64,000 nucleotides of DNA from Chloroflexota bacterium (lineage in GTDB: Bacteria > Chloroflexota > Limnocylindria > P2-11E). Positions 2,891-46,400 of this stretch are shown piece after piece. The notes beneath the pieces are model-generated. The model made no database searches, had not been told where the DNA came from, and was given only the letters and a program-made list of their open reading frames with translations. The DNA lies in assembly GCA_005889405.1 (NCBI GenBank), contig VBFY01000057.1:17475-81474 (forward strand), written 5' to 3'. Position 1 is the first letter of the stretch; the number at the start of each line of letters is the position of its first letter. Position numbers and translations under genes: made by a program.

Positions 2891-3997
2891 GTGATGGCGA
2901 AGACCGCGGATTACTACCAGCTGCTCGGCGTGCCGCGCAACGCGACGCCGGATCAGATTCGCAGCGCGTACCGCAAGCTGGCGAAACAGCACCATCCGGA
3001 CGTCGGCGAGGCGCCCGATGGCGCCGAGCGCTTCAAGCAGATCTCCGAGGCGTACGAGGTCCTCTCGGACCCCGAGCGACGCCAGCGCTACGACATGTTC
3101 GGGAGCGGCCAGGGCCTCGGCGACTTCGGGATCGGCGATCTCTTCGAGACGTTCTTCGGCAGCGAGTTCCGCCGGCGCGAGCCGCGTGGGCCAATGCGCG
3201 GCGCCGATCTCCGAATGGAGATCGAGGTCGACCTGATCGACGCGGTGAAGGGCGGCGCGCGCACGATCCGCGTGCCGCGGCTCGAGACCTGCGAGCGCTG
3301 CGAGGGCAGCGGCGCGGAGCCGGGCTCGAAGATCTCGACCTGCGCGACCTGCAACGGTCGCGGCGAGGTGCGGCAGGTCCAACAATCGGTGTTCGGCCGC
3401 TTCGTGAACGTGTCGACGTGCCCGCGCTGCGGCGGCTCGGGCAAGACCGTCGACGCGCTCTGCACGCGCTGCCGCGGCGAAGGCCGCGAGCGCCGCGACC
3501 ACGAGCTTCCGCTCGACATCCCAGCCGGGATCGATGACGGGCAGCAGCTCCGCGTCGCGGGAGAAGGCGAGGCCGGTCTCCGCGGCGGCCCGTCGGGCGA
3601 TCTGTACGTCCTCATCCGATTGCGCGAGCACGCCTTCTTCCGACGCGAGGGGGACGATCTCGTGCACGTCCTCCGCATCTCGCCGGCGCAGGCCGCACTC
3701 GGCGCGGACCTCGAGGTTCCGACGATCGAAGGCGTGACCGCGCCGGTGAAAGTGCCCGGCGGGGCGCAGCACGGCCAGATGGTCCGGCTGCGCGGGAAGG
3801 GCGTCCCGCATCTCGGCTCGTCGGGCCGCGGCGACCAGCTCGTCTATCTCGATGTCGCGGTCCCGCGCACGCTCACCAAGGAACAGAGGGCGCTCTACAA
3901 GCAGCTGCACGACATCGAGGGCGCGCCCGAGCAGCATGACGAGGGCGATGCGCGGGGCGTCTTCGACCGCATCAAGGACGCCATGGGCGGCGAGTGA
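2891..3997 (+). CDS. dnaJ: chaperone DnaJ
   Basis: J-domain with HPD (KQHHPDV), a G/F region, and four CxxCxGxG zinc-finger repeats (CERCEGSG, CATCNGRG, CPRCGGSG, CTRCRGEG). True start may be the second ATG at 2894. Confidence 0.95.
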   Translation: MMAKTADYYQLLGVPRNATPDQIRSAYRKLAKQHHPDVGEAPDGAERFKQISEAYEVLSDPERRQRYDMFGSGQGLGDFGIGDLFETFFGSEFRRREPRGPMRGADLRMEIEVDLIDAVKGGARTIRVPRLETCERCEGSGAEPGSKISTCATCNGRGEVRQVQQSVFGRFVNVSTCPRCGGSGKTVDALCTRCRGEGRERRDHELPLDIPAGIDDGQQLRVAGEGEAGLRGGPSGDLYVLIRLREHAFFRREGDDLVHVLRISPAQAALGADLEVPTIEGVTAPVKVPGGAQHGQMVRLRGKGVPHLGSSGRGDQLVYLDVAVPRTLTKEQRALYKQLHDIEGAPEQHDEGDARGVFDRIKDAMGGE

Positions 3998-4866
3998 CGC
4001 CGCCCGTCGCCTGGCTCGAGATCGCCGTCCCCGCGCACGCTGAAGCCGTCGAAGCGGTGAGCGAGATCCTCTCGCGCGTCGGATACAACGGGATCGCGGT
4101 CGAGGTCCCACTCGAGCGTGGAGCGGGCGCCGACCACACCGTGAAGGCCTACGTCGTCGAAGACGCTGACGCCTTTGCCAAGGTATCCGATGTTCGCGAC
4201 GCGCTCGGGCACCTCCAGGCCTTCGGTCTCGGACCGATCGGCGAGCTCGTCGCGCGGCGCGTCGACGACAAGGACTGGCTCGAGAGCTGGAAGGCAGAGT
4301 TCGTCCCGATCCGCATCGGCGCATTCCTGGTGCGGCCGACGTGGTCCGAGTCGATCGTGGGTGAAGGCGTCGAGCTCGTGCTCGATCCGGGCATGGCATT
4401 CGGCACCGGGCTGCATCCGACGACCCAGCAGTGTCTCGAGGCGCTCTCGACGCTGCCGCTCGGGGGCAAGAGCGTGCTGGACGTCGGAACGGGCTCGGGC
4501 ATCCTCGCGATCGCCGCGGCGAAGCGTGGCGCGTCGCCCGTCGTCGCCGTCGACACTGACACGCTCGCCGTCGACGCCGCGCGTGAGAACGCGGTACGCA
4601 ACGGCGTCGCCATCCCGGTCGCCGCGGGGAGCGCCGCGGACGTGCCCGGCCGCTTCGACGTCGTCGTCGCGAACATCGTGTCTCCGGTCCTGCAGCAGAT
4701 CGCGTCGCACCTCGCGGCGCGGCTGGCGAGTGGCGGCACGCTCCTCGTCGCCGGTATCAGCGTGCCGGCCGAACGCGCGACGCGCGAGGCCCTGCGGTCC
4801 GCGCGCCTAGGGGTCCTCGACCGTACCGTGCGCGACGATTGGGTCGCGCTCGCGCTACGCCGCTAG
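3994..4866 (+). CDS. prmA: ribosomal protein L11 methyltransferase
   Basis: SAM-MTase motif VLDVGTGSGILAIAA; length and position after dnaJ are conserved. The start overlaps the dnaJ stop. Confidence 0.9.
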   Translation: MTPPVAWLEIAVPAHAEAVEAVSEILSRVGYNGIAVEVPLERGAGADHTVKAYVVEDADAFAKVSDVRDALGHLQAFGLGPIGELVARRVDDKDWLESWKAEFVPIRIGAFLVRPTWSESIVGEGVELVLDPGMAFGTGLHPTTQQCLEALSTLPLGGKSVLDVGTGSGILAIAAAKRGASPVVAVDTDTLAVDAARENAVRNGVAIPVAAGSAADVPGRFDVVVANIVSPVLQQIASHLAARLASGGTLLVAGISVPAERATREALRSARLGVLDRTVRDDWVALALRR

Positions 4867-5573
4867 TGCACCGTTTCTTCGTCGCGCCCGAGACGCTGCG
4901 CGCCGACCGCGTGACGCTCACCGGGGCGCAGGCGCGTCAGATCGCGATCGTGCTGCGGCTGCGCGCGGGCGACCAGATCGCGCTGGTGGCTGACGGATCG
5001 GAAGCCATCGTCTCACTCGCGACCGTGCGGCCCGCGTCGGTCACCGCGGTCGTGCGCGAGCGCGGCTTCACATCGGCAGAGCCGACGGTCGCGCTGACGC
5101 TCGCCCTTCCCGTCCTGCGCGGCGATCACGACGAGGAGGTCGTCGAGGCCGTCACGCAGCTCGGCGCGTCGCGCATCTTTCCGTTCACCAGCGCGCGCTC
5201 CGTCGTGCGAAGTCTCAGCGAGGCAAAGCGAACGCGCTGGGAGCGCATCGCGCGCGAGGCCGCCGAGACCGCGCGTCGTGGTCGCGTCCCGACGATCGAA
5301 CCGATGCGGGCCTGGAACGACCTGTTCGCAGTTCTGCCAGCGCCGGTCTACGTCGCATGGGAAGGTGAGCGGCACGCGCGGCTACGTGACGCGTTGCAGG
5401 AGACGGCGCGCGCGCTATCGGTGGTGATCGGTCCGGAGGGTGGGATCGCCGAGGATGAGGTCGCTCTCGCGCGCGAGCACGGCGCGACCACAGTCTCGCT
5501 CGGGGGTCGGAATCTTCGAAGCGAGACAGCGGCCATCGCCGCTGTCGCGCTGGTCATGGACCGCCTCAGCTAA
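4866..5573 (+). CDS. rsmE: 16S rRNA (uracil1498-N3)-methyltransferase
   Basis: RsmE/YqeU-like (HRFFV..., VVIGPEGGIAEDE, SLGGRNLRSETA). GTG at 4866 overlaps the prmA TAG (TAGTG). The track's upstream ATG lies inside prmA. Confidence 0.85.
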   Translation: MHRFFVAPETLRADRVTLTGAQARQIAIVLRLRAGDQIALVADGSEAIVSLATVRPASVTAVVRERGFTSAEPTVALTLALPVLRGDHDEEVVEAVTQLGASRIFPFTSARSVVRSLSEAKRTRWERIAREAAETARRGRVPTIEPMRAWNDLFAVLPAPVYVAWEGERHARLRDALQETARALSVVIGPEGGIAEDEVALAREHGATTVSLGGRNLRSETAAIAAVALVMDRLS

Positions 5574-7158: not shown

Positions 7159-7341
7159 GTGATCCATAGATCGTTGTCTGAAGTGATCGTCGGTGATGGC
7201 GAGTCATTCGAGGCCGCCCTTCGCCGTTTCAACAAGAAGATCCAACAAGCCGGGATCCTCGCAGAAGCCCGTCGACGGGAGTTCTACGAGCGCCCCGCCG
7301 CGCGCCGCAAGCGCAAGGAAGCCAAGCGGCGCAAGCGCTAG
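7159..7341 (+). CDS. rpsU: 30S ribosomal protein S21
   Basis: [32 protein letters not shown]... matches the S21 signature. GTG start; alternative GTG at 7183. Confidence 0.85.
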
Positions 7342-7357
7342 TTCGGAGAGCCCAGGC

Positions 7358-7900
7358 ATCACAGCCCCGCTGAAACAAAGGCTCGAGAGCGATCTTCGGG
7401 CCGCCATGAAATCGGGCGACACCTTCCGCCGCGACACGCTGCGCTTCGTGCTGGCCGCGATCCAGCGCGAGGGAGTCGACCGTCTTCAAGCGACCATCGA
7501 GCGTCTGGTCGCGGAGGGAAAGGACGAGGCGTCGCGTCAGGCGCATATCGCCGAGCACCGTCCGTCCGATCTCGATGACGTCGGGGTCCTCGACGTGCTT
7601 CAGAAACAAGCGAAGATGCGACGCGACTCGACCCTGGCCTTCCGCAAGGGTGACCGGCCCGAGCTCGCGGCGAAAGAAGAGCAGGAGCTCGCGATCATCC
7701 AGAGCTATCTGCCGACGCAGATGTCGGATGCGGAGCTGCGCTCGATCGTCGAGCGCGTCGTCGCCGAGACGGGCGCCGCGGGCCCGCGCGATATGGGCAA
7801 GGTCATGCCCAAGGTGCTCGCCCAGACGAAGGACCGCGCCGACGGGAAGAAGGTCGCGGGGCTCGTCGGCGCGATGCTGAAGGAGAAAGCATCGTCATGA
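7358..7900 (+). CDS. yqeY: GatB/YqeY domain protein
   Basis: PLKQRLESDLRAAMKSGD...IQSYLP...GKVMPKV is YqeY-like and follows rpsU as in Firmicutes. No ATG/GTG/TTG precedes the conserved N-terminus; ATC 7358 or CTG are the only in-frame options, and the first ATG (7406) would truncate the domain. Confidence 0.7.
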   Translation: MTAPLKQRLESDLRAAMKSGDTFRRDTLRFVLAAIQREGVDRLQATIERLVAEGKDEASRQAHIAEHRPSDLDDVGVLDVLQKQAKMRRDSTLAFRKGDRPELAAKEEQELAIIQSYLPTQMSDAELRSIVERVVAETGAAGPRDMGKVMPKVLAQTKDRADGKKVAGLVGAMLKEKASS

Positions 7901-9933
7901 GCGTGCCCGCGCAGATCACGATCCTGATCCCCGACCCGGACGAGATGATGTTCGTCACCGGCAACAACGACGCGAACATCGATCGCATCGAGCGGGAGTT
8001 CGCGGTGAAGATCGTGTCGCGCGGCGCGGAGCTGCGCATCATGGGCGACCCCGGGAATGTCGCGCGCGTCGGCGAGCTCGTCAGCGCGATGCGGACGCTC
8101 TCCGATCGCGACGAGAATCTGCGTAAGCCCGCGCTCGAGCGGCTCATCGATGAAGCGAAGGACGCGCCGGTCGCCGCACCCGAGCAACTGCGTGAGGTCG
8201 TCGCGACGACGGTGCGCGGGAAACGCATCACCCCGCAGTCCGCGAACCAGCGGAGTTATGTCGAGGCGATCCGCAGCCACGATCTTGTCTTCGCGACAGG
8301 TCCCGCCGGGACCGGAAAAAGCTATTTGGCGGTCGCGCTCGGTGTCGCCGCACTACGCGATCGCAAGGTCGCGCGTCTCATCCTCACGCGGCCCGCGGTG
8401 GAGGCGGGGGAGCGGCTCGGCTTCCTACCCGGCGATCTCACGGAAAAGATCGACCCGTACCTGCGCCCGCTCTACGACGCGCTCTACGAGCTCATGCCGC
8501 CGGAGCGCTTCACGCGCGCGATGGAACGCGGCGAGATCGAGGTGGCGCCGCTGGCGTTCATGCGCGGACGCGCGCAGCCGGTGTTCAGCAAGGTCCTCAC
8601 GCCGACCGGGTTCACCACCATCGGCGATCTCTCGGTCGGAGATCAGGTCATCGGCTCGGATGGACGGCCGACGACGGTGCTCGGTGTATACCCGCAGGGA
8701 CGTAGGCCGTTATTTCGCGTCGGGACTCAGGACGGAGCATCGACGCTCGCCTGCGGCGAGCACCTGTGGGTCGTGGCGACCGCAAGCGATAAGAGGCATG
8801 GCAAACCGTTCCGCATCGTGCAGACGCGGGACATGGTGGGACGCCTGCGCGTGGCGCATCAGCACCGCTACGAGCTGCCGCTCCTCACGCGTCCGGTGGA
8901 GTTCGATCGGTACCACATCCTCATGGACCCGTATGCTCTTGGTCTGCTGCTCGGCGACGGCTGCGTGACCACGTCGACGACCCCGTCATTCACAACCGCG
9001 GACCCGAGCCTCGTGACCGCCCTCGCGTCGCGCCTTCCGGACACCGAGATCTTTCGTAAGGGCGAGATCGAGTACGTCCTGCGCCGAAGGGGCGGCGCGC
9101 GAGGCGGACCGAGGATCGTGAACCCGGTGACCGATCTGCTGCGCAAGCTTCAGCTGGCTGGCAGGCACTCGGCAGATAAGTTCGTGCCCACGGAGTACCT
9201 TTGCAACATCTCCGAAGTACGGCTCGGAGTGATGCAGGGTCTGCTCGATGCGGACGGCGGCCCGGTCACGCAGGATGGACGAACGTGCCGCATCCAGTAC
9301 ACGACGACATCACCCCGACTCCGGGAGGACATGGTCTTCCTGGTGCGCTCGTTTGGCGGCGTTGCGTACTGGCGGACACGCCGTGCCGAAGGTCGCAAGC
9401 CCGGTCGTGCGCGCGGTCGCGGTCTTCACAACCGCGCGGACGCGTATCAGGTCGAGATTCGTCTGCCAGCCGGCATCGTGCCGTTCAGGCTCGCGCGCAA
9501 GCGCGATCTCTATGACACGCAAGGCGGTGGCCGGCCGATGCGCTTCATCGACAGCGTCGAGCCCGCGGGCGAGCACGAAACGGTCTGCATCAAGGTCGCG
9601 GCTCCCGATTCGCTCTACATCACCGACGACTTCCTGGTAACGCACAACACCCTCAACGAAGCGTTCATCATCCTCGACGAAGCGCAGAACGCGACGCCGG
9701 CGCAGATGAAGATGTTCCTCACGCGCCTCGGGTACGGTTCGCAAGCTGTTGTGAACGGCGACATCACGCAGATCGACCTCGATAAAGACCAGCGCTCCGG
9801 TCTGGTCGTCGGACGCGAGATCCTGCGCGGGGTCGAGGGCATCGCCTTCGTTGACTTCAACGAACGCGACGTCGTGCGCCACGAGCTCGTTGCGCGGATA
9901 GTCCGGGCGTACGATCGGTACGAAAAGAAGTGA
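7897..9933 (+). CDS. phoH: PhoH-family ATPase, interrupted by an intein
   Basis: Walker A GPAGTGKS. The conserved AFMRGR | TLNEAFIILDEAQN block is split by a 359-aa insertion. Exteins total ~319 aa, typical for PhoH. Confidence 0.9.
   Translation: MSVPAQITILIPDPDEMMFVTGNNDANIDRIEREFAVKIVSRGAELRIMGDPGNVARVGELVSAMRTLSDRDENLRKPALERLIDEAKDAPVAAPEQLREVVATTVRGKRITPQSANQRSYVEAIRSHDLVFATGPAGTGKSYLAVALGVAALRDRKVARLILTRPAVEAGERLGFLPGDLTEKIDPYLRPLYDALYELMPPERFTRAMERGEIEVAPLAFMRGRAQPVFSKVLTPTGFTTIGDLSVGDQVIGSDGRPTTVLGVYPQGRRPLFRVGTQDGASTLACGEHLWVVATASDKRHGKPFRIVQTRDMVGRLRVAHQHRYELPLLTRPVEFDRYHILMDPYALGLLLGDGCVTTSTTPSFTTADPSLVTALASRLPDTEIFRKGEIEYVLRRRGGARGGPRIVNPVTDLLRKLQLAGRHSADKFVPTEYLCNISEVRLGVMQGLLDADGGPVTQDGRTCRIQYTTTSPRLREDMVFLVRSFGGVAYWRTRRAEGRKPGRARGRGLHNRADAYQVEIRLPAGIVPFRLARKRDLYDTQGGGRPMRFIDSVEPAGEHETVCIKVAAPDSLYITDDFLVTHNTLNEAFIILDEAQNATPAQMKMFLTRLGYGSQAVVNGDITQIDLDKDQRSGLVVGREILRGVEGIAFVDFNERDVVRHELVARIVRAYDRYEKK
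8572..9648 (+). mobile_element. intein with LAGLIDADG homing endonuclease domain inside phoH
   Basis: Block A-like AQPVFSKVLTPTG. Two LAGLIDADG motifs (YALGLLLGDGCV and RLGVMQGLLDADGG). C-terminal block DDFLVTHN followed by +1 Thr. Host extein sequences are contiguous when the insertion is removed. Confidence 0.85.
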
Positions 9934-12044
9934 TCCGACTCCCGGCCGGACGCCGGCTGAACCAGATTCCGGCCGCGCTTCGCACGACGCTCGGCGCGAC
10001 GACGCTCCGGATGTACGTCTTCGTCATCGCGACCGGCGCCCTCACCGCTCTCGCGCTGCTCCTCTCGCCTCCTGCGACGGTGGGCTACGACGTTGGGACC
10101 CTCGCCGACCGCACGGTGAAGGCGCCACGCTCCGTGGCCTTCGTCTCCGAAACGCTCACTGAGGCGGAGCGCGAGCGCGCCGCGGCGGCGGTGGCGAAGG
10201 TGTACACGCGCGATCCGGCCGTCGTCGCGAGCTCGCGGGACCGGCTGGCGCAGGCCATCGCCGCGATCGGACGCGTCCGCGCCGACGCCGCGCAGACGCG
10301 AGACCAGCGCATCACGTCGATCACGCGTCTCACCGAAGTTGCGATCAGCCCGCAGCTCGCGCCGCTCGTCGTCGACATGACCGCCGCAGAGTGGGATGCG
10401 GTCTCCAAGGAAGTCGACAACGCGCTGCGCACGCTCTATCAGCCGGGCATCCGGCCCGAGCAGCTCGATACCGCGCGCGCCGCCGCGGCGACATCGTTGC
10501 CGCCGGCCTGGACCGACCGGCAGAAAGCCGTAGGGGCGGAGCTGGTGCGGCAGTTCCTCGAGGCGGACGTCGCGCTCGACGCGGTCCAGACGGCCAGCGC
10601 GCAGCAAGCCGCTCGAAACGGTGTGCTGCCGGTGACAGTGCAGGTCCTCGCGGGCGAGGTCGTCGTGCGCGAAAGCACGGTCGTGAACGCGCTCGACGTC
10701 GAGAAGCTCCGCGCGCTCGGTCTGGTGAACACCGGCATCGACTGGCCGGGCGCGGTCGGACTCACGATCTGGGCGGTCCTCATCGCGGCGGTGCTCGCGC
10801 TCTTCATGGAGCGCCACGCGACCGAGGCCTGGAACGACGACCGCAAGATGATCCTCGTCATCCTTTCGCTGCTCGCGGTCACCGTGACCGCCCGCGCACT
10901 CGTGCCGGGCCACACCCTTCTCGTGTACTTCATCCCGTTCGCCGCGGTCGCGATGATCATCACCGTGCTCGTCGGCGGCCGCACGGCGCTCGCGACGCAG
11001 ATCGCCGGCGCGCTGCACGTCGGCATCATGTCGGGACAGGTCGAGCTCGTCGCATACGTGCTCGTCCCAGCTCTTCTGGGGATGGCCGCGGTGCGGCGCG
11101 CCACGACCGCGCGCGAGTTCGCGACCGGAGCGGTGTCCGTTGCGGTCGGGAACCTCGGCGTCGTCGTCTCGTTCGCGCTCGTCGGTCAGTCCACCGATCC
11201 GCTCGGCGCCGCGCAGCTCGCGGTCGCGGCGCTTGTGAGCGGCGCGGGCTCGGGCCTGCTCGCGTTCGCCGGCATGGCGATCTTTGGCCACGTCTTCCGC
11301 ATCACGACGGTGTTCGAGCTGCGCGAGCTCGCGGACCCGAACCATCCGCTGCTGCGTCAGCTCCTGCTCCGCACGCCGGGCACCTATCACCACTCGCTGC
11401 TTGTCGCGAACCTGGCGGAACGCGCCGCGGAGGTGATCGGCGCGGATCCACTCGTCGCTCGCGTGGGCGCCTATTACCACGACATCGGCAAGATGCGGAA
11501 CCCATCCGCGTTCATCGAGAACCAGACCGGAACGAATCCGCACGACGAGCTCGACCCGATGGTCTCCGCCGGCATCGTCGCGGCGCACGTTCGCGACGGA
11601 CTGTCGCTCGCGGATCGGTACCACCTGCCGGCGATGATCCGCGAGATGATCCCAGCGCATCACGGCACCAGCGTGGTCAAGTACTTCTACCAGCTCGCCC
11701 AGCAGCGCGGTCAGAACCCTGACGACGCGTCCTTCCATTACCCGGGCCCGCGGCCGCGCACGAAGGAAGCCGGCATCGTCATGCTTGCTGACGGCACCGA
11801 GGCGTCGGTGCGATCGCTCGCGGAGAAGAAACCCGAGACGATCCGCGTGATGGTCGAGCGGATCGTCAGCGACCGCCTCGCGGAAGGTCAGCTCGACGAA
11901 TGCGACCTCACGCTGCGCGACCTGCAGCAGATCAAGGACGCGTTCTGCGAGCTCCTCCTCGGCGTCTACCACGAGCGGATCCCGTATCCGGAAGACCGCA
12001 TCGCACGCATCCCTCCCGCATCACAGGCGGCGTCCGACCGCTGA
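9930..12044 (+). CDS. pgpH: 7TM-HD membrane phosphodiesterase (PgpH/YqfF family)
   Basis: N-terminal extracellular region, 7 TM helices, then an HD domain (YYHDIGK, HH..., LADGTEA). GTG start overlaps the phoH stop; phoH-yqfF-ybeY order is conserved. Confidence 0.85.
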   Translation: MIRLPAGRRLNQIPAALRTTLGATTLRMYVFVIATGALTALALLLSPPATVGYDVGTLADRTVKAPRSVAFVSETLTEAERERAAAAVAKVYTRDPAVVASSRDRLAQAIAAIGRVRADAAQTRDQRITSITRLTEVAISPQLAPLVVDMTAAEWDAVSKEVDNALRTLYQPGIRPEQLDTARAAAATSLPPAWTDRQKAVGAELVRQFLEADVALDAVQTASAQQAARNGVLPVTVQVLAGEVVVRESTVVNALDVEKLRALGLVNTGIDWPGAVGLTIWAVLIAAVLALFMERHATEAWNDDRKMILVILSLLAVTVTARALVPGHTLLVYFIPFAAVAMIITVLVGGRTALATQIAGALHVGIMSGQVELVAYVLVPALLGMAAVRRATTAREFATGAVSVAVGNLGVVVSFALVGQSTDPLGAAQLAVAALVSGAGSGLLAFAGMAIFGHVFRITTVFELRELADPNHPLLRQLLLRTPGTYHHSLLVANLAERAAEVIGADPLVARVGAYYHDIGKMRNPSAFIENQTGTNPHDELDPMVSAGIVAAHVRDGLSLADRYHLPAMIREMIPAHHGTSVVKYFYQLAQQRGQNPDDASFHYPGPRPRTKEAGIVMLADGTEASVRSLAEKKPETIRVMVERIVSDRLAEGQLDECDLTLRDLQQIKDAFCELLLGVYHERIPYPEDRIARIPPASQAASDR

Positions 12045-12097
12045 AGATCGCGGTCCGTGGCGAGGCCCCGTGTGATCTCGCACCCGCGCGCCGCGCC

Positions 12098-12496
12098 GTG
12101 CGCGCCGCACTTCGCCCCTACGGCGTCACGCGGGATGCAGAGGTCGTGCTCGCCTTCGTCGACGATGCCGCGATGCGCGAGCTCAACCGCCGTTACCGCG
12201 GGAAGGATCGGACCACGGACGTGCTCTCGTTCGGGCAGTCGCTGGGCCGCGGCGCCAGAGGCCTACATGCGGCGGCGTTGCTGAAACGCGAGGCCGACGG
12301 CACGCTCGAGCTCGGGGATGTCGTCATCAGCGGCGCCCAGGCCGCGCGCCAGGCGATACGGCGCCGCCGGCCACTCGCCACCGAGGTCGCTTTCCTGGCG
12401 GCTCACGGGGCACTCCACCTGCTGGGATACGAGGACGACACCAGCGCGGGATACCGCGAGATGCTCCGGCTGGGCCGCGCGGCGCTGAAAGGTTAA
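12098..12496 (+). CDS. ybeY: rRNA maturation endoribonuclease YbeY
   Basis: TDVLSF and the HGALHLLGYEDD zinc-binding motif. Start is uncertain: GTG 12098 is the first canonical start after the pgpH stop, and the conserved region begins shortly after. Confidence 0.8.
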   Translation: MRAALRPYGVTRDAEVVLAFVDDAAMRELNRRYRGKDRTTDVLSFGQSLGRGARGLHAAALLKREADGTLELGDVVISGAQAARQAIRRRRPLATEVAFLAAHGALHLLGYEDDTSAGYREMLRLGRAALKG

Positions 12497-42349: not shown

Positions 42350-42964
42350 CTGGTCCGTCTGGCGAAACTCTTCCAGCGCCGCGCCCCGCCGCGCGTCGAT
42401 CGCCTCGTTGTCGGCCTCGGTAATCCGGGCGACGGGTATGCGAACACGCGCCACAACGTCGGTTTCCAGGTCGCGAACCGACTCGCGAAGCGGGCGCGGC
42501 TCGAGTTCGACACCAAGGCCGCGGAGTCGCGCATCGCAGAGGGCTCGCTCGGCGATCTCCGCATCGCGATCGCGCGCCCGCAGACGTTCATGAACGACAG
42601 CGGCCGCGCCGTCGGAAAGCTGCTCGACCGCTACCGGCTCACGCCGGACGCGCTCCTCGTCGTCTTCGACGAGGTCGACCTGCCTCTCGGCAAGGTGCGG
42701 CTACGGGAGCGTGGGGGTCCGGGGACGCACAACGGGATGCGCTCGATCACGAGCGAGATCGGCCAGGCCTTTCCGCGCCTGCGGATCGGCGTCGCCCCGG
42801 TGGATCCGACCGTCGAGATCGCCGACCTCGCGCAGTACGTGCTGTCGCCGTTCGCGCCCGATGAACGCGCCGAGGCGGACCAGGTGATCCTCCGCGGGGC
42901 GGAGGCGGCGGAGGTCGCGGTCCGCGATGGCATCAAGAAAGCCATGGAGAAGTTCAATGGCTAG
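42350..42964 (+). CDS. pth: peptidyl-tRNA hydrolase
   Basis: VVGLGNPG...NTRHNVGF and the C-terminal GTHNG motifs. Between the in-frame TAG upstream and the conserved N-terminus the only possible start is CTG 42350, which has an AAGGAGA SD 6 nt upstream. Confidence 0.85.
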   Translation: MVRLAKLFQRRAPPRVDRLVVGLGNPGDGYANTRHNVGFQVANRLAKRARLEFDTKAAESRIAEGSLGDLRIAIARPQTFMNDSGRAVGKLLDRYRLTPDALLVVFDEVDLPLGKVRLRERGGPGTHNGMRSITSEIGQAFPRLRIGVAPVDPTVEIADLAQYVLSPFAPDERAEADQVILRGAEAAEVAVRDGIKKAMEKFNG

Positions 42965-45900
42965 CACAGCGGCGCTCGCATCCGGCGCGCGGCTGGGCGG
43001 CATCCTCGCTCTCGCGGATCGGAGCGAGCGGTTCCGCGATCTCGCCGAACGCCTCGAGGACCGGCGCTCGACCAAGATCGCCGATGCGACCGCCGGCGCG
43101 CGCGCGTTCGCGTGGGCGTCGCTCGTGGAGGTTTCGCGGAGGACCGTCGTCGTGGTCGCACCGAGCGAGGACCGCGCGCGACGTTGGCGCGCGGAGCTCG
43201 CGGCCTGGCTGGGGGAGGAGCGCGTCCTCTCGTTCCCCGAGCGCGAGACGATGCCCTTCGAGATCGGAAGCGCGTCGGCCGGCGCGGTGCATCAGCGTTT
43301 GCTCACGCTGTGGCGAGCGCACACCGCACCGGAGCCGGTCGCGATCGTCGCGTCACTGCGCGCGCTCATGCAGCACACCATCGCGCCCGCCGACCTCCGC
43401 GAGCGCGGTCGGACGCTGCGCGCCGGCGATCACGTGTCGTGGAACGCGACGGCCGAGTGGCTCTTCGAGCTCGGGTATGAACCTGTCGCCGAGGTGAGCG
43501 AGCCCGGCAGCTTCTCGCGCCGCGGCGGGATCCTCGACGTGTATCCCGCGTCGGCCGACATGCCGGTGCGGATCGAGCTCTTCGGCGACGACATCGAGAC
43601 GCTCCGCAGATTCGATCCGGTGACGCAGCGCTCGCAGGACACCGCCGAATCGGTCGACATCCTGCCCGCGCGTGAGTACTCGCTCGAGGGCGCCGCCGCG
43701 CTCGCCGAGAGTCTCGCCGCCGCGCAGTGGGATCGACCGCGTGACGAGGAGGATGAGCTGCAGCCCTACGCGTCGCTGGTCGAGGCGCTGCGCGAAGGTC
43801 GCGTCGCGCCGGGCACCGACGCCTTCGCGCCAGCCCTGGGAGCGACCGCATCGCTTCTCGATCATCTCGGCGACCGCGCCACTGTCGTCTTCGAGGACTC
43901 GGTCGAGCTCGGCCTCACCCACGACGCGCACGAGGCACAGGCCGAGGAGCGACGGGAAGAGCTGCGCGAACAGGGGCTCGCGGTCGGTGTTTTCCCGTCG
44001 CCGTACGTGCCCCGCGACCGTCTCGACGCGTCGGCCGACGAGCACGGGGCGGTGCGCGTGCGTCCCGATGCCGACGCGCTGCGGCTCGGCTGGGGCGGCA
44101 TCACCTCGTACGCCGGCAGGCTCGACGCGTTCCTGCGAGAGGTCGCAGGTGCGGGACGCGATCTTCGCATCGTCGCGTCGCCGCAGGCCGCTCGGCTCGC
44201 GGAGCTGCTCGCCGATCGCGACGTGACCGCCACGCCCAGCGACACCGTGGCCGAGGTGCCGGCCGATGGCGCGCTGGTCCTCGCTCACGTCGGTCTCGCA
44301 GAAGGCTTCGCCGTACCGGAGCTCACCCTTCGCGTGTTCACCGACGCGGAGGTCTTCGGTTTCCGCAAACCGCGACATCCAGAGCGCCGGCCCCGTCGCG
44401 TCGCGGTCGGCTCGTTCCTCTCCGACCTGAAGCCGGGCGATCACGTCGTGCACGAGGACCATGGCATCGCGCGGTTCGAGCGCTTCATCACGCGCGAGAT
44501 CGCGGGCGTGGTGCGCGAATACCTCGAGCTGCGTTTCGCGGGCACCGACGTCGTCGCGCTTCCGACGGAACGCGTGGACCGCGTGACGCGCTACGTCGGC
44601 GGCACGCCGCCGGCCCTGTCGGCGCTCGGCGGCCGCGACTGGGCCGCGACGAAGCGCAAGGCCAAGAAGGCGGTGGAGGAGATCGCGCGCGAGCTGATCC
44701 GGCTGTACGCGGCGCGCGAGACGATCAGCGCGCACGCCTTCGGTCGCGACACGCCGTGGCAGATCGAGATGGAGAACGCCTTCCCGTTCACCGAGACGCC
44801 CGATCAGCTGCAGGCGATCGAGGACAGCAAGCGCGACATGGAGCGTCCACGTCCGATGGACCGTCTGGTCGTCGGCGACGTCGGCTATGGAAAGACCGAG
44901 GTCGCGCTGCGCGCCGCGTTCAAGGCGGTGCAGGACGGGAAGCAGGTCGCCGTGCTCGTGCCGACCACGGTCCTCGCGCAGCAGCACTTCGAGACGTTCT
45001 CCGAGCGCCTGGCGACGTTCCCGGTCCGCGTTGCGATGCTGTCGCGCTTCCGCACGCCGCCCGAGCAGCGCGAGGTCGTCGCGCAGCTCGCGACCGGCGA
45101 GGTCGACGTCGTCATCGGCACGCATCGCTTGCTGCAGAAGGACGTGCAGTTCCGCGATCTCGGTCTGCTCGTCATCGACGAAGAGCATCGCTTCGGCGTG
45201 AAGCACAAGGAGCGTATGAAGCAGATGCGCACCGAGGTTCACGTCCTGTCGATGACGGCGACGCCGATCCCGCGCACGCTGCACATGGCGCTGTCCGGCG
45301 TGCGCGACATCAGTGTCATCGAAACGCCGCCGGAGGATCGTCAGCCGATCGAGACCCACGTGGTCGAGCGCACCGACGACGTGCTGCGCGAGGCGATCCT
45401 GCGCGAGCTCGATCGGGGCGGCCAGGTCTTCTTCGTGCATAACCGCGTGCAGGGCATCGAACACGAGACGCAGCGCCTCCGCGCGCTCGTCCCGCAGGCG
45501 CGCTTCGTCGTCGGGCATGGTCAGATGGACGAACGGAAGCTCGAACGCGTGATGGTCGAGTTCGCGGACGCGGAGCACGATGTGCTCGTCTGCACGACGA
45601 TCATCGAGTCCGGCCTCGACATCCCGAACGTGAACACGATCGTGATCGATCGCGCCGGGCAGCTCGGGCTCGCGCAGCTCTACCAGCTGCGCGGTCGCGT
45701 CGGCCGCAGCGCCGCGAAGGCGTACGCGTACCTGCTGCACGAGAAGCAGGAGCGGCTCACCGACGACGCGCGCAAGCGGCTTCAGGCGGTGTTCGAGGCG
45801 AGCGAGCTCGGCGCCGGATTCAAGATCGCGATGCACGACCTCGAGATACGCGGCGCGGGCAACATCCTGGGGGCCGAGCAGCACGGGCATGTCGCCGCCG

Positions 45901-46400
45901 TCGGGTTCGAGCTGTACACGCAGCTCCTCGAGGACGCCGTGAACGAGCAGCGGGGCGCGCCCAAGGCCGAGGCGCTGCCCGAGGTCACCGTGGACCTGGC
46001 GCTCTCGACCGCGATCCCGGACGAGTACGTGCCGAGCCGCCAGCGCAAGCTCGAGCTCTATCGGCGCATCGCGGAGCTTCGCTCGCTCGACGATCTCGGT
46101 GCGTTGCGCGACGAGCTGCGCGACCGCTACGGGCCGCCGCCGGATCCGGTGCGCAATCTCCTCTACGGCGTCGAGGTGAAGCTGCGTGCGGTGAGCGCCG
46201 GCGCGACCGAGGTGCGAGCGCGCGGTCCCGAGCTGCGGCTCGTACTGGCGCGCGACATCACGGCTCAGCAGCGCGGGGCGGTCACGCGCGTATTCCCGAA
46301 GGCGCAGACCGGCCAGCGTCAGATCCGCCTCTCCGTGCTCGACACGCGCGGCGACTGGCGCGACGCGCTCACGCGGCTGCTCGATCTGGTGGCGGCGTGA
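42957..46400 (+). CDS. mfd: transcription-repair coupling factor
   Basis: UvrB-homology N-terminus, RID, DEAD/DEAH helicase motifs ([18 protein letters not shown]), and TRCF C-terminal domain. ATG overlaps the pth stop. Confidence 0.95.

Follow-up and report, generated by a model that had tools for sequence, protein, structure and literature searches.

Class 3 inteins are defined by a non-nucleophilic residue 1, a Trp-Cys-Thr (WCT) triplet formed by Trp at B:12, Cys at F:4 and Thr at G:5, and a Thr or Ser at position +1; some WCT inteins begin with Ser1 or Cys1 (Tori et al. 2010, PMC2807308). Inteins of this type are known from the PhoH ATPase: M. fortuitum and M. xenopi have class 3 inteins in PhoH, which have been aligned with DnaB class 3 inteins (Kelley et al. 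2018, PMC6195587, Fig. 6a), the PhoH intein of M. smegmatis has been noted (Woods et al. 2020, PMC7360933), and PhoH is among the frequent bacterial intein hosts, with 21 inteins from Actinobacteria and Deinococcus-Thermus (Novikova et al. 2016, PMC4760082). Here we analyse a 359-aa insert in the phoH gene of a soil Chloroflexota bacterium, located on a 64,000-nucleotide stretch of contig VBFY01000057.1 (the window). The insert is very probably a class 3, endonuclease-containing intein in a chromosomal phoH (ybeZ-type) gene of Limnocylindria-like Chloroflexota, predicted both to splice and to home. It is an ordinary member of the PhoH intein allele already described, the sole modest extension being the host phylum.

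Like the mycobacterial and actinobacterial PhoH class 3 inteins, the window intein resides in the same host protein, has WCT, occupies the MRGR/...THN/TLN site, is about 359 aa long and carries an endonuclease. It differs from them in its host (Chloroflexota / Candidatus Limnocylindria) and at B:7, which is Cys here and Ser in Mycobacterium-like copies. By way of other mycobacterial PhoH proteins, we infer that the M. fortuitum and M. xenopi inteins are probably the same allele as the window intein. More than 1,500 database proteins match the PhoH intein, at 63-87% identity, and the best 120 per search are all PhoH proteins with a LAGLIDADG domain. All 29 PhoH inteins in our alignment lie at the identical site and are 62-87% identical to the window copy; the hosts listed are Mycobacterium sp. 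(WP_424051998.1, P0096), M. simulans, M. celatum, Nonomuraea, Actinomadura, Kutzneria, Gaiellaceae, Thermoleophilaceae and Limnocylindria. The exact 678-aa protein encoded in the window is present on four public metagenome contigs. A preliminary description of the locus, made from its sequence, had regarded class 3 inteins as rare and one inside phoH as a noteworthy find. Neither view holds: the wider intein family comprises 4,651 clusters at 50% identity (E<=1e-30), with WCT in nearly all of the top 150, 822 phage records match the intein as well, and class 3 PhoH inteins are already published for mycobacteria (PMC6195587; also PMC7360933 and PMC4760082).

The interrupted phoH gene

The open reading frame at 7897-9933 (+) encodes a 678-aa PhoH precursor. 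PF02562 matches it at 1.2e-86 (289.9 bits), broken into two stretches, and LAGLIDADG_3 is found between the two (6e-09, 38.7 bits against a curated Pfam cut-off of 22.5). With its PF02562 domain, Walker A and Walker B, the host protein is a PhoH/YbeZ P-loop ATPase. Walker A (GPAGTGKS) lies upstream of the insert and the Walker B Asp-Glu (IILDEAQN) 10-11 residues past the splice site, the insert ending 9 residues upstream of the Walker B Asp, in agreement with the preliminary description, which had PhoH interrupted between AFMRGR and TLNEAFIILDEAQN, just before Walker B. The components of the interrupted gene are as follows.

7897..8571 (+): PhoH N-extein, 225 aa; KH-like N-terminal region and Walker A GPAGTGKS, ending ...AFMRGR; first PF02562 stretch at residues 111-226
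8542..8571 (+): presumed homing site, left half GTGGCGCCGCTGGCGTTCATGCGCGGACGC; right half ACCCTCAACGAAGCGTTCATCATCCTCGAC at 9649-9678
8572..9648 (+): predicted class 3 intein, 359 aa, Ala1 to Asn359; absent from loci L001-L005 and from 77/80 PhoH loci
8572..8886 (+): N-half of the splicing (HINT) domain, about residues 1-105, limit approximate; block A from Ala1; aligned with 6RIX, 6RIY, 6BS8 and 6RIZ
8572-8574 (+): Ala1 codon, GCG
8752-8769 (+): block B CGEHLW codons, with Cys61 (B:7), His64 (B:10) and Trp66 (B:12)
8887..9471 (+): LAGLIDADG homing endonuclease domain, about residues 106-300, limits approximate; from Pfam LAGLIDADG_3 (1.3e-09), the PI-SceI profile alignment and Foldseek
8938-8961 (+): LAGLIDADG motif 1, LGLLLGDG, with Asp129
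9232-9261 (+): LAGLIDADG motif 2, MQGLLDADGG, with Asp228
9472..9648 (+): C-half of the splicing domain, about residues 301-359, with blocks F and G
9586-9588 (+): block F Cys339 (F:4) codon
9640-9648 (+): block G Thr357-His358-Asn359
9649..9933 (+): PhoH C-extein, 94 aa and stop; Thr+1 nucleophile (ACC, 9649-9651), then LNEAFIILDEAQN (Walker B)

Translated, 8572-9648 (+) gives 359 aa that begin AQPVF, read AQPVFSKVLTPTG...DDFLVTHN and are followed by Thr; the junctions are ...VAPLAFMRGR / intein / TLNEAFIILDEAQN. The insert contains CGEHLW (Cys61, His64, Trp66), ETVCIKV (Cys339) and VTHN/T, as well as two LAGLIDADG motifs, LGLLLGDG at residues 123-130 and MQGLLDADGG at 221-230. The extent and sequence of the insert had been given exactly in the preliminary description, as had the Ala1 start, the VTHN end, the +1 Thr, both LAGLIDADG motifs, CGEHLW and ETVCIKV. 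With 8572-9648 deleted, 319 aa of PhoH remain, 93% identical to the PhoH proteins of loci L001 and L003.

PhoH alleles without the insert

We scanned the spliced 319-aa PhoH against one genome per species, which returned 80 loci. An uninterrupted [FY]MRGR/[TS]L[DN]...DE is present in 77 of them and an insert in three. The nearest PhoH relatives are Chloroflexota / Candidatus Limnocylindria metagenome-assembled genomes. Loci L001 and L003 (93% extein identity), L002, L004 and L005 read through an uninterrupted AFMRGR/(T/S)LNEAF; in L006, L007 and L008, an insert occupies the exact codon boundary used in the window phoH. The intein-free alleles of these near relatives place both insert boundaries to codon precision: the N-extein (7897..8571) is continuous in alignment with L001 and L003, the presumed homing-site halves at 8542..8571 and 9649-9678 are contiguous in L001-L005, and the intein-free site of L001 is GCCTTCATGCGCGGAAGA/ACCCTTAACGAAGCGTTCATC. 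Because close relatives are uninterrupted and 77 of 80 PhoH loci lack the insert, 8572-9648 is, on these comparisons, evidently an intein rather than a PhoH domain, and the domain reading was rejected. The preliminary description had tied its intein call to PhoH homologues not normally carrying the segment, and had proposed looking for intein-free alleles in related genomes; the survey upholds the call and L001-L005 supply the alleles. In the intein-free locus L003 (DASYUY010000043.1, around 3676), the would-be +1 residue is Ser (TCG) and not Thr (ACC), which might be a homing-site variant.

Class 3 signature and conservation

By sequence, profile and Foldseek comparisons, the insert has the HINT fold: it contains blocks A, B, F and G, ends in His-Asn and is followed by a nucleophilic +1 residue. 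The class 3 signature is complete as well, with Ala1, Trp at B:12, Cys at F:4 and Thr at G:5, then His-Asn and Thr+1. Against the class 3 prototype, the intein of phage Bethlehem, it aligns over its full length (BLASTP, E 1e-20, 26% identity). His64 and Trp66 correspond to His65 and Trp67 of the Bethlehem intein (His65-Gly66-Trp67), Cys339 to Cys320, and Thr357-His358-Asn359-Thr+1 to Thr339-His340-Asn341-Thr+1; the Bethlehem residues matched in this way are those analysed by mutation (PMC2807308). Both inteins consist of a splicing domain and a LAGLIDADG endonuclease, with 341 aa in Bethlehem and 359 here. They differ at residue 1 (Pro there, Ala here), at B:7 (Ser there, Cys here) and in location, a phage gene as opposed to a chromosomal phoH, and the Bethlehem intein is biochemically characterised whereas the PhoH insert is known from sequence.

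Although called the 'DnaB intein', the Bethlehem prototype was located in gp11, which is annotated as a hypothetical protein and which we read as the terminase large subunit. Two other candidate locations were rejected: tblastn found nothing in the 'DnaB-like helicase' gp62 (L081), and the intein of the gp52 phosphoesterase is a different one. The gp52 intein (L081, 7578-9296, minus strand) is of class 1 type, with Cys after HEGNHD and the end ...HLTGN/S.

The best single-sequence matches in the PDB are the class 3 inteins MchDnaB1 (6RIX/6RIY, 4e-10) and Msm DnaBi1 (6BS8, 3e-08), which have WCT and are about 30% identical to the insert in the splicing domain. His64-Leu65-Trp66 aligns with HQW of 6RIX/6BS8 and HLW of 6RIZ, and Cys118/Cys124 of the two inteins are equivalent to Cys339; the pairing of Cys339 with the catalytic Cys118 of Msm DnaBi1 falls in a second segment that alone is not significant. 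Unlike the PhoH insert, both are mini-inteins of the DnaB P-loop, reduced by loss of the endonuclease; B:7 of DnaBi1 is Asp, and its redox partner Cys48 has no counterpart shown here. With a family profile of 13 PhoH inteins, the engineered gp41-1_WCT (6RIZ, 7e-15) scores above wild-type gp41-1 (6QAZ, 8e-12). In the aligned segments, the sole visible differences between 6RIZ and 6QAZ are the grafted Trp and Cys, which align with Trp66 and Cys339, Cys107 of gp41-1_WCT being the equivalent of Cys339. Thus, Trp66 and Cys339 align to the WCT positions of characterised class 3 inteins both pairwise and by profile, which bears out the class 3 assignment of the preliminary description. The LAGLIDADG_3 score, the PDB matches and the full-length Bethlehem match lie far outside what chance would produce.

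Conservation was counted in a hidden Markov model (HMM) alignment of about 220 PhoH inteins, taking the sequences aligned at a given position. His B:10 and Trp B:12 are present in 220/220, Cys F:4 in 219/219, Thr G:5 / Thr-His-Asn in 217/217 and Thr+1 in 213/213. Residue 1 is Ala in 174/196 and Ser in 22/196. The PhoH inteins with Ser1 (about 11%; P0051 and 21 others) retain the full WCT and parallel the few Ser1/Cys1 WCT inteins known from elsewhere (Tori et al. 2010).

The endonuclease domain

In the profile comparison (E 1e-11), residues ~106-300 pair with the endonuclease domain of PI-SceI, including the Asp of each motif; the profile motifs yalGlllGdG and lqGlldsdGG correspond to GLWIGDG and GLIDSDG of PI-SceI. 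The domain thus has the two motifs of a double-motif LAGLIDADG enzyme in one chain, each ending in a conserved acidic residue. The motif Asp residues of LAGLIDADG endonucleases are the metal-binding catalytic residues, and among the PhoH inteins Asp129 is kept in 215/220 and Asp228 in 217/220. Foldseek searches with the AlphaFold model of the insert gave PI-SceI and other endonuclease-bearing inteins as top matches (E 2.5e-16, TM 0.64), and the class 3 mini-inteins matched the splicing domain (E about 1e-6). PI-SceI (the Sce VMA1 intein) is the best structural and profile match and shares the two-domain architecture and the double-motif LAGLIDADG domain; unlike the PhoH insert, to which it is 15-16% identical, it is a eukaryotic class 1 intein with Cys1 and Cys+1 and without WCT.

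In pairwise Nei-Gojobori estimates among four Limnocylindria-type intein copies, the ratio of non-synonymous to synonymous divergence (dN/dS) was 0.12-0.27 in the endonuclease part, 0.12-0.20 in the splicing part and 0.05-0.19 in the exteins. By these values, both intein domains are under purifying selection. One relative departs from this picture of an intact domain: L007 (DATKCP010000160.1, intein within 3001-4983; 93% extein identity) lacks 19 aa between the LAGLIDADG motifs and reads GDGY in place of GDGC, with its splicing residues intact, and looks like a decaying endonuclease that may be heading towards a mini-intein. For the window copy, the preliminary description had proposed an apparently intact homing endonuclease, and the two retained Asp residues, the PI-SceI-type domain and the LAGLIDADG_3 match above its cut-off all point the same way.

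Distribution and probable mobility

Among genomes with 91-95% PhoH extein identity, some carry the intein and others the intein-free allele. Inteins from Actinomycetota and other Chloroflexota are a uniform 62-69% identical to the window copy, while the extein values span 46% to 86%; in P0038 and P0004, for instance, the exteins resemble those of Limnocylindria (81-86%), yet the inteins are 65-69% identical. This decoupling of intein and extein identity is what horizontal spread by homing predicts, and it suggests such spread for this allele. The intein has a GC content of 0.656, against 0.677 and 0.611 for the host gene, and a third-position GC content (GC3) of 0.79, against 0.87 and 0.82. 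This slight difference in composition gives no sign of recent acquisition.

Full-length relatives (35-40% identity) occur in the terminases and helicases of the 822 phage records, 300 of them from mycobacteriophages, which fits the proposed phage association of class 3 inteins. Several large proteins of 900-2,200 aa, P0123-P0136 and other representatives, match the intein in 2-4 separate stretches and so each bear more than one related class 3 intein. An HMM search of the whole window for further inteins of this PhoH-intein family found none besides that at 8572-9648.

Proposed splicing and homing

In the mechanism we propose by homology to class 3 inteins, a 678-aa precursor would be translated with its ATPase core split between Walker A and Walker B. 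Ala1 cannot start the splicing reaction because it is non-nucleophilic. Instead, the thiol of Cys339 in block F, aided by His64 and Trp66, would attack the Arg(-1)-Ala1 bond to give a branched thioester, and the N-extein would be transferred to the Thr+1 hydroxyl, producing the standard block G branched ester. Asn359 would cyclise, with His358 assisting and Thr357 positioning, to free the intein, and an O-to-N acyl shift would leave a peptide-bonded ...AFMRGR-TLNEAF... and a normal 319-aa PhoH. The pathway with two branched intermediates is established for class 3 inteins (PMC2807308, PMC5222942). The invariant catalytic residues and the purifying selection on intein and exteins lend indirect support to excision and ligation here.

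The freed, PI-SceI-like intein probably cuts intein-free phoH at the conserved TTCATGCGCGG...|AC.CT.AACGA..., and repair would copy the intein in. This assignment of the homing site rests on how intein homing generally works. Cleavage and homing gain indirect support from the intein-free alleles of near relatives, the decoupling of intein from extein identity and the purifying selection on the endonuclease domain.

We also considered whether Cys61 might confer a redox switch. B:7 in inteins is usually Thr, Ser or Asp. In the PhoH inteins it is Cys in 127/220, Ser in 86/220 and Thr in 7/220, the window Cys61 being encoded at 8752-8754. Cys61 would adjoin the catalytic centre, and a disulfide with Cys339 is possible in principle. 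A reversible Cys61-Cys339 disulfide, analogous to the Cys48-Cys118 trap in Msm DnaBi1, could make PhoH maturation redox-conditional in the Cys-bearing subset of PhoH inteins, an idea we regard as improbable; the Cys/Ser alternation at B:7 suggests an ordinary polar role, not a selected redox switch. PhoH/YbeZ is a partner of YbeY, and redox-conditional PhoH maturation, if true, might touch YbeY-linked ribosome or RNA processing.

Alternative explanations

Perhaps the insert splices as a class 3 intein in the way described and its LAGLIDADG nuclease is dead, making it a fixed, vertically inherited passenger whose imprecise loss would destroy PhoH. We consider this unlikely, if a possibility of some weight. 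The deletion and the GDGC-to-GDGY change in the endonuclease domain of the close relative L007 speak for it; the synonymous divergence (dS) of the intein (0.68-0.73) is similar to that of the exteins (0.52-0.74), which is compatible with vertical descent and loss; and the intein GC3 lies near the 0.82-0.87 of the host gene, so that there was no recent arrival. However, a dead domain should drift or shrink to a mini-intein, as in Msm DnaBi1, whereas the insert and ~98% of homologues retain the Asp of each motif and the endonuclease dN/dS resembles that of the splicing domain. The mixture of intein-free and intein-bearing alleles among near relatives and the decoupling of intein and extein divergence across phyla also argue against a dead nuclease. 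The splicing part of the reading faces two challenges of its own. Since a reading frame alone cannot tell inactivation from an accessory domain, and since the splicing of PhoH inteins is predicted rather than observed, the insert could be non-splicing, with phoH inactivated or the 359 aa serving as a permanent accessory domain of a variant PhoH. That is scarcely credible for a segment that is missing from most PhoH proteins and splits the ATPase core at an invariant MRGR/T motif lying between the two Walker motifs, with all catalytic splicing residues invariant across ~220 homologues, exteins under strong purifying selection (dN/dS 0.05-0.19) and the gene set within a conserved rpsU-yqeY-phoH-pgpH-ybeY operon. 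It is also very improbable that the insert splices without its block F Cys, the +1 residue attacking the N-terminal junction directly in the manner of the class 2 KlbA inteins, even though Ala1 is common to class 2 inteins. KlbA inteins have Cys+1, and the insert has Thr+1 together with WCT and Cys at F:4, on which grounds we rejected the class 2 mechanism. In known class 2 (KlbA) inteins, F:4 is Asp and there is no WCT triplet (PMC2807308). The nearest characterised relatives of the insert are all class 3, and these require both the F:4 Cys and a fixed order of branched intermediates (PMC2807308, PMC5222942).

We favour a splicing class 3 intein whose homing endonuclease is probably active. 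Several points weigh against it. WCT alone is insufficient, its graft onto gp41-1 having led mostly to cleavage (PMC7664689), and our literature search found neither the phrase 'PhoH intein' nor biochemical evidence for any PhoH intein. The AlphaFold model is of moderate confidence (mean pLDDT, the predicted local distance difference test score, 66.7). The L007 deletion shows that endonuclease decay is occurring in the clade and makes activity here uncertain, and within the clade with 91-95% extein identity, intein and exteins have similar synonymous divergence, so that recent homing is not demonstrated.

Implications

The main consequence is for annotation, the gene encoding an intein-containing PhoH precursor with a predicted mature product of 319 aa; beyond that, the significance of the locus is small. 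It shows the class 3 PhoH intein allele in a clean natural form in a host outside Actinobacteria, and the Limnocylindria set, with intein-bearing, intein-free and one decaying-endonuclease allele, could serve studies of the homing cycle. Protein engineering could also draw on the window intein as one more full-length class 3 intein. Splicing data on a PhoH intein would fill a small gap, the expected outcome being the established class 3 mechanism.

Gene neighbourhood

The gene lies in a conserved cluster of the order rpsU-yqeY-phoH-pgpH-ybeY (window 7159-12496):

7159-7341: rpsU, conserved housekeeping cluster
ending at 7900: yqeY, upstream of phoH
9930-12044: 7TM-HD pgpH-type gene, downstream of phoH
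to 12496: ybeY, motif HGALHLLGYED

This housekeeping context implies that PhoH has to be restored by splicing. Elsewhere in the window, Mfd (1,157 aa, 42927-46400, +) has UvrB_inter, CarD_TRCF_RID, DEAD, Helicase_C and TRCF domains and no intein. The stop and start codons flanking phoH overlap on both sides (7897-7900 and 9930-9933), which suggests translational coupling with its neighbours.

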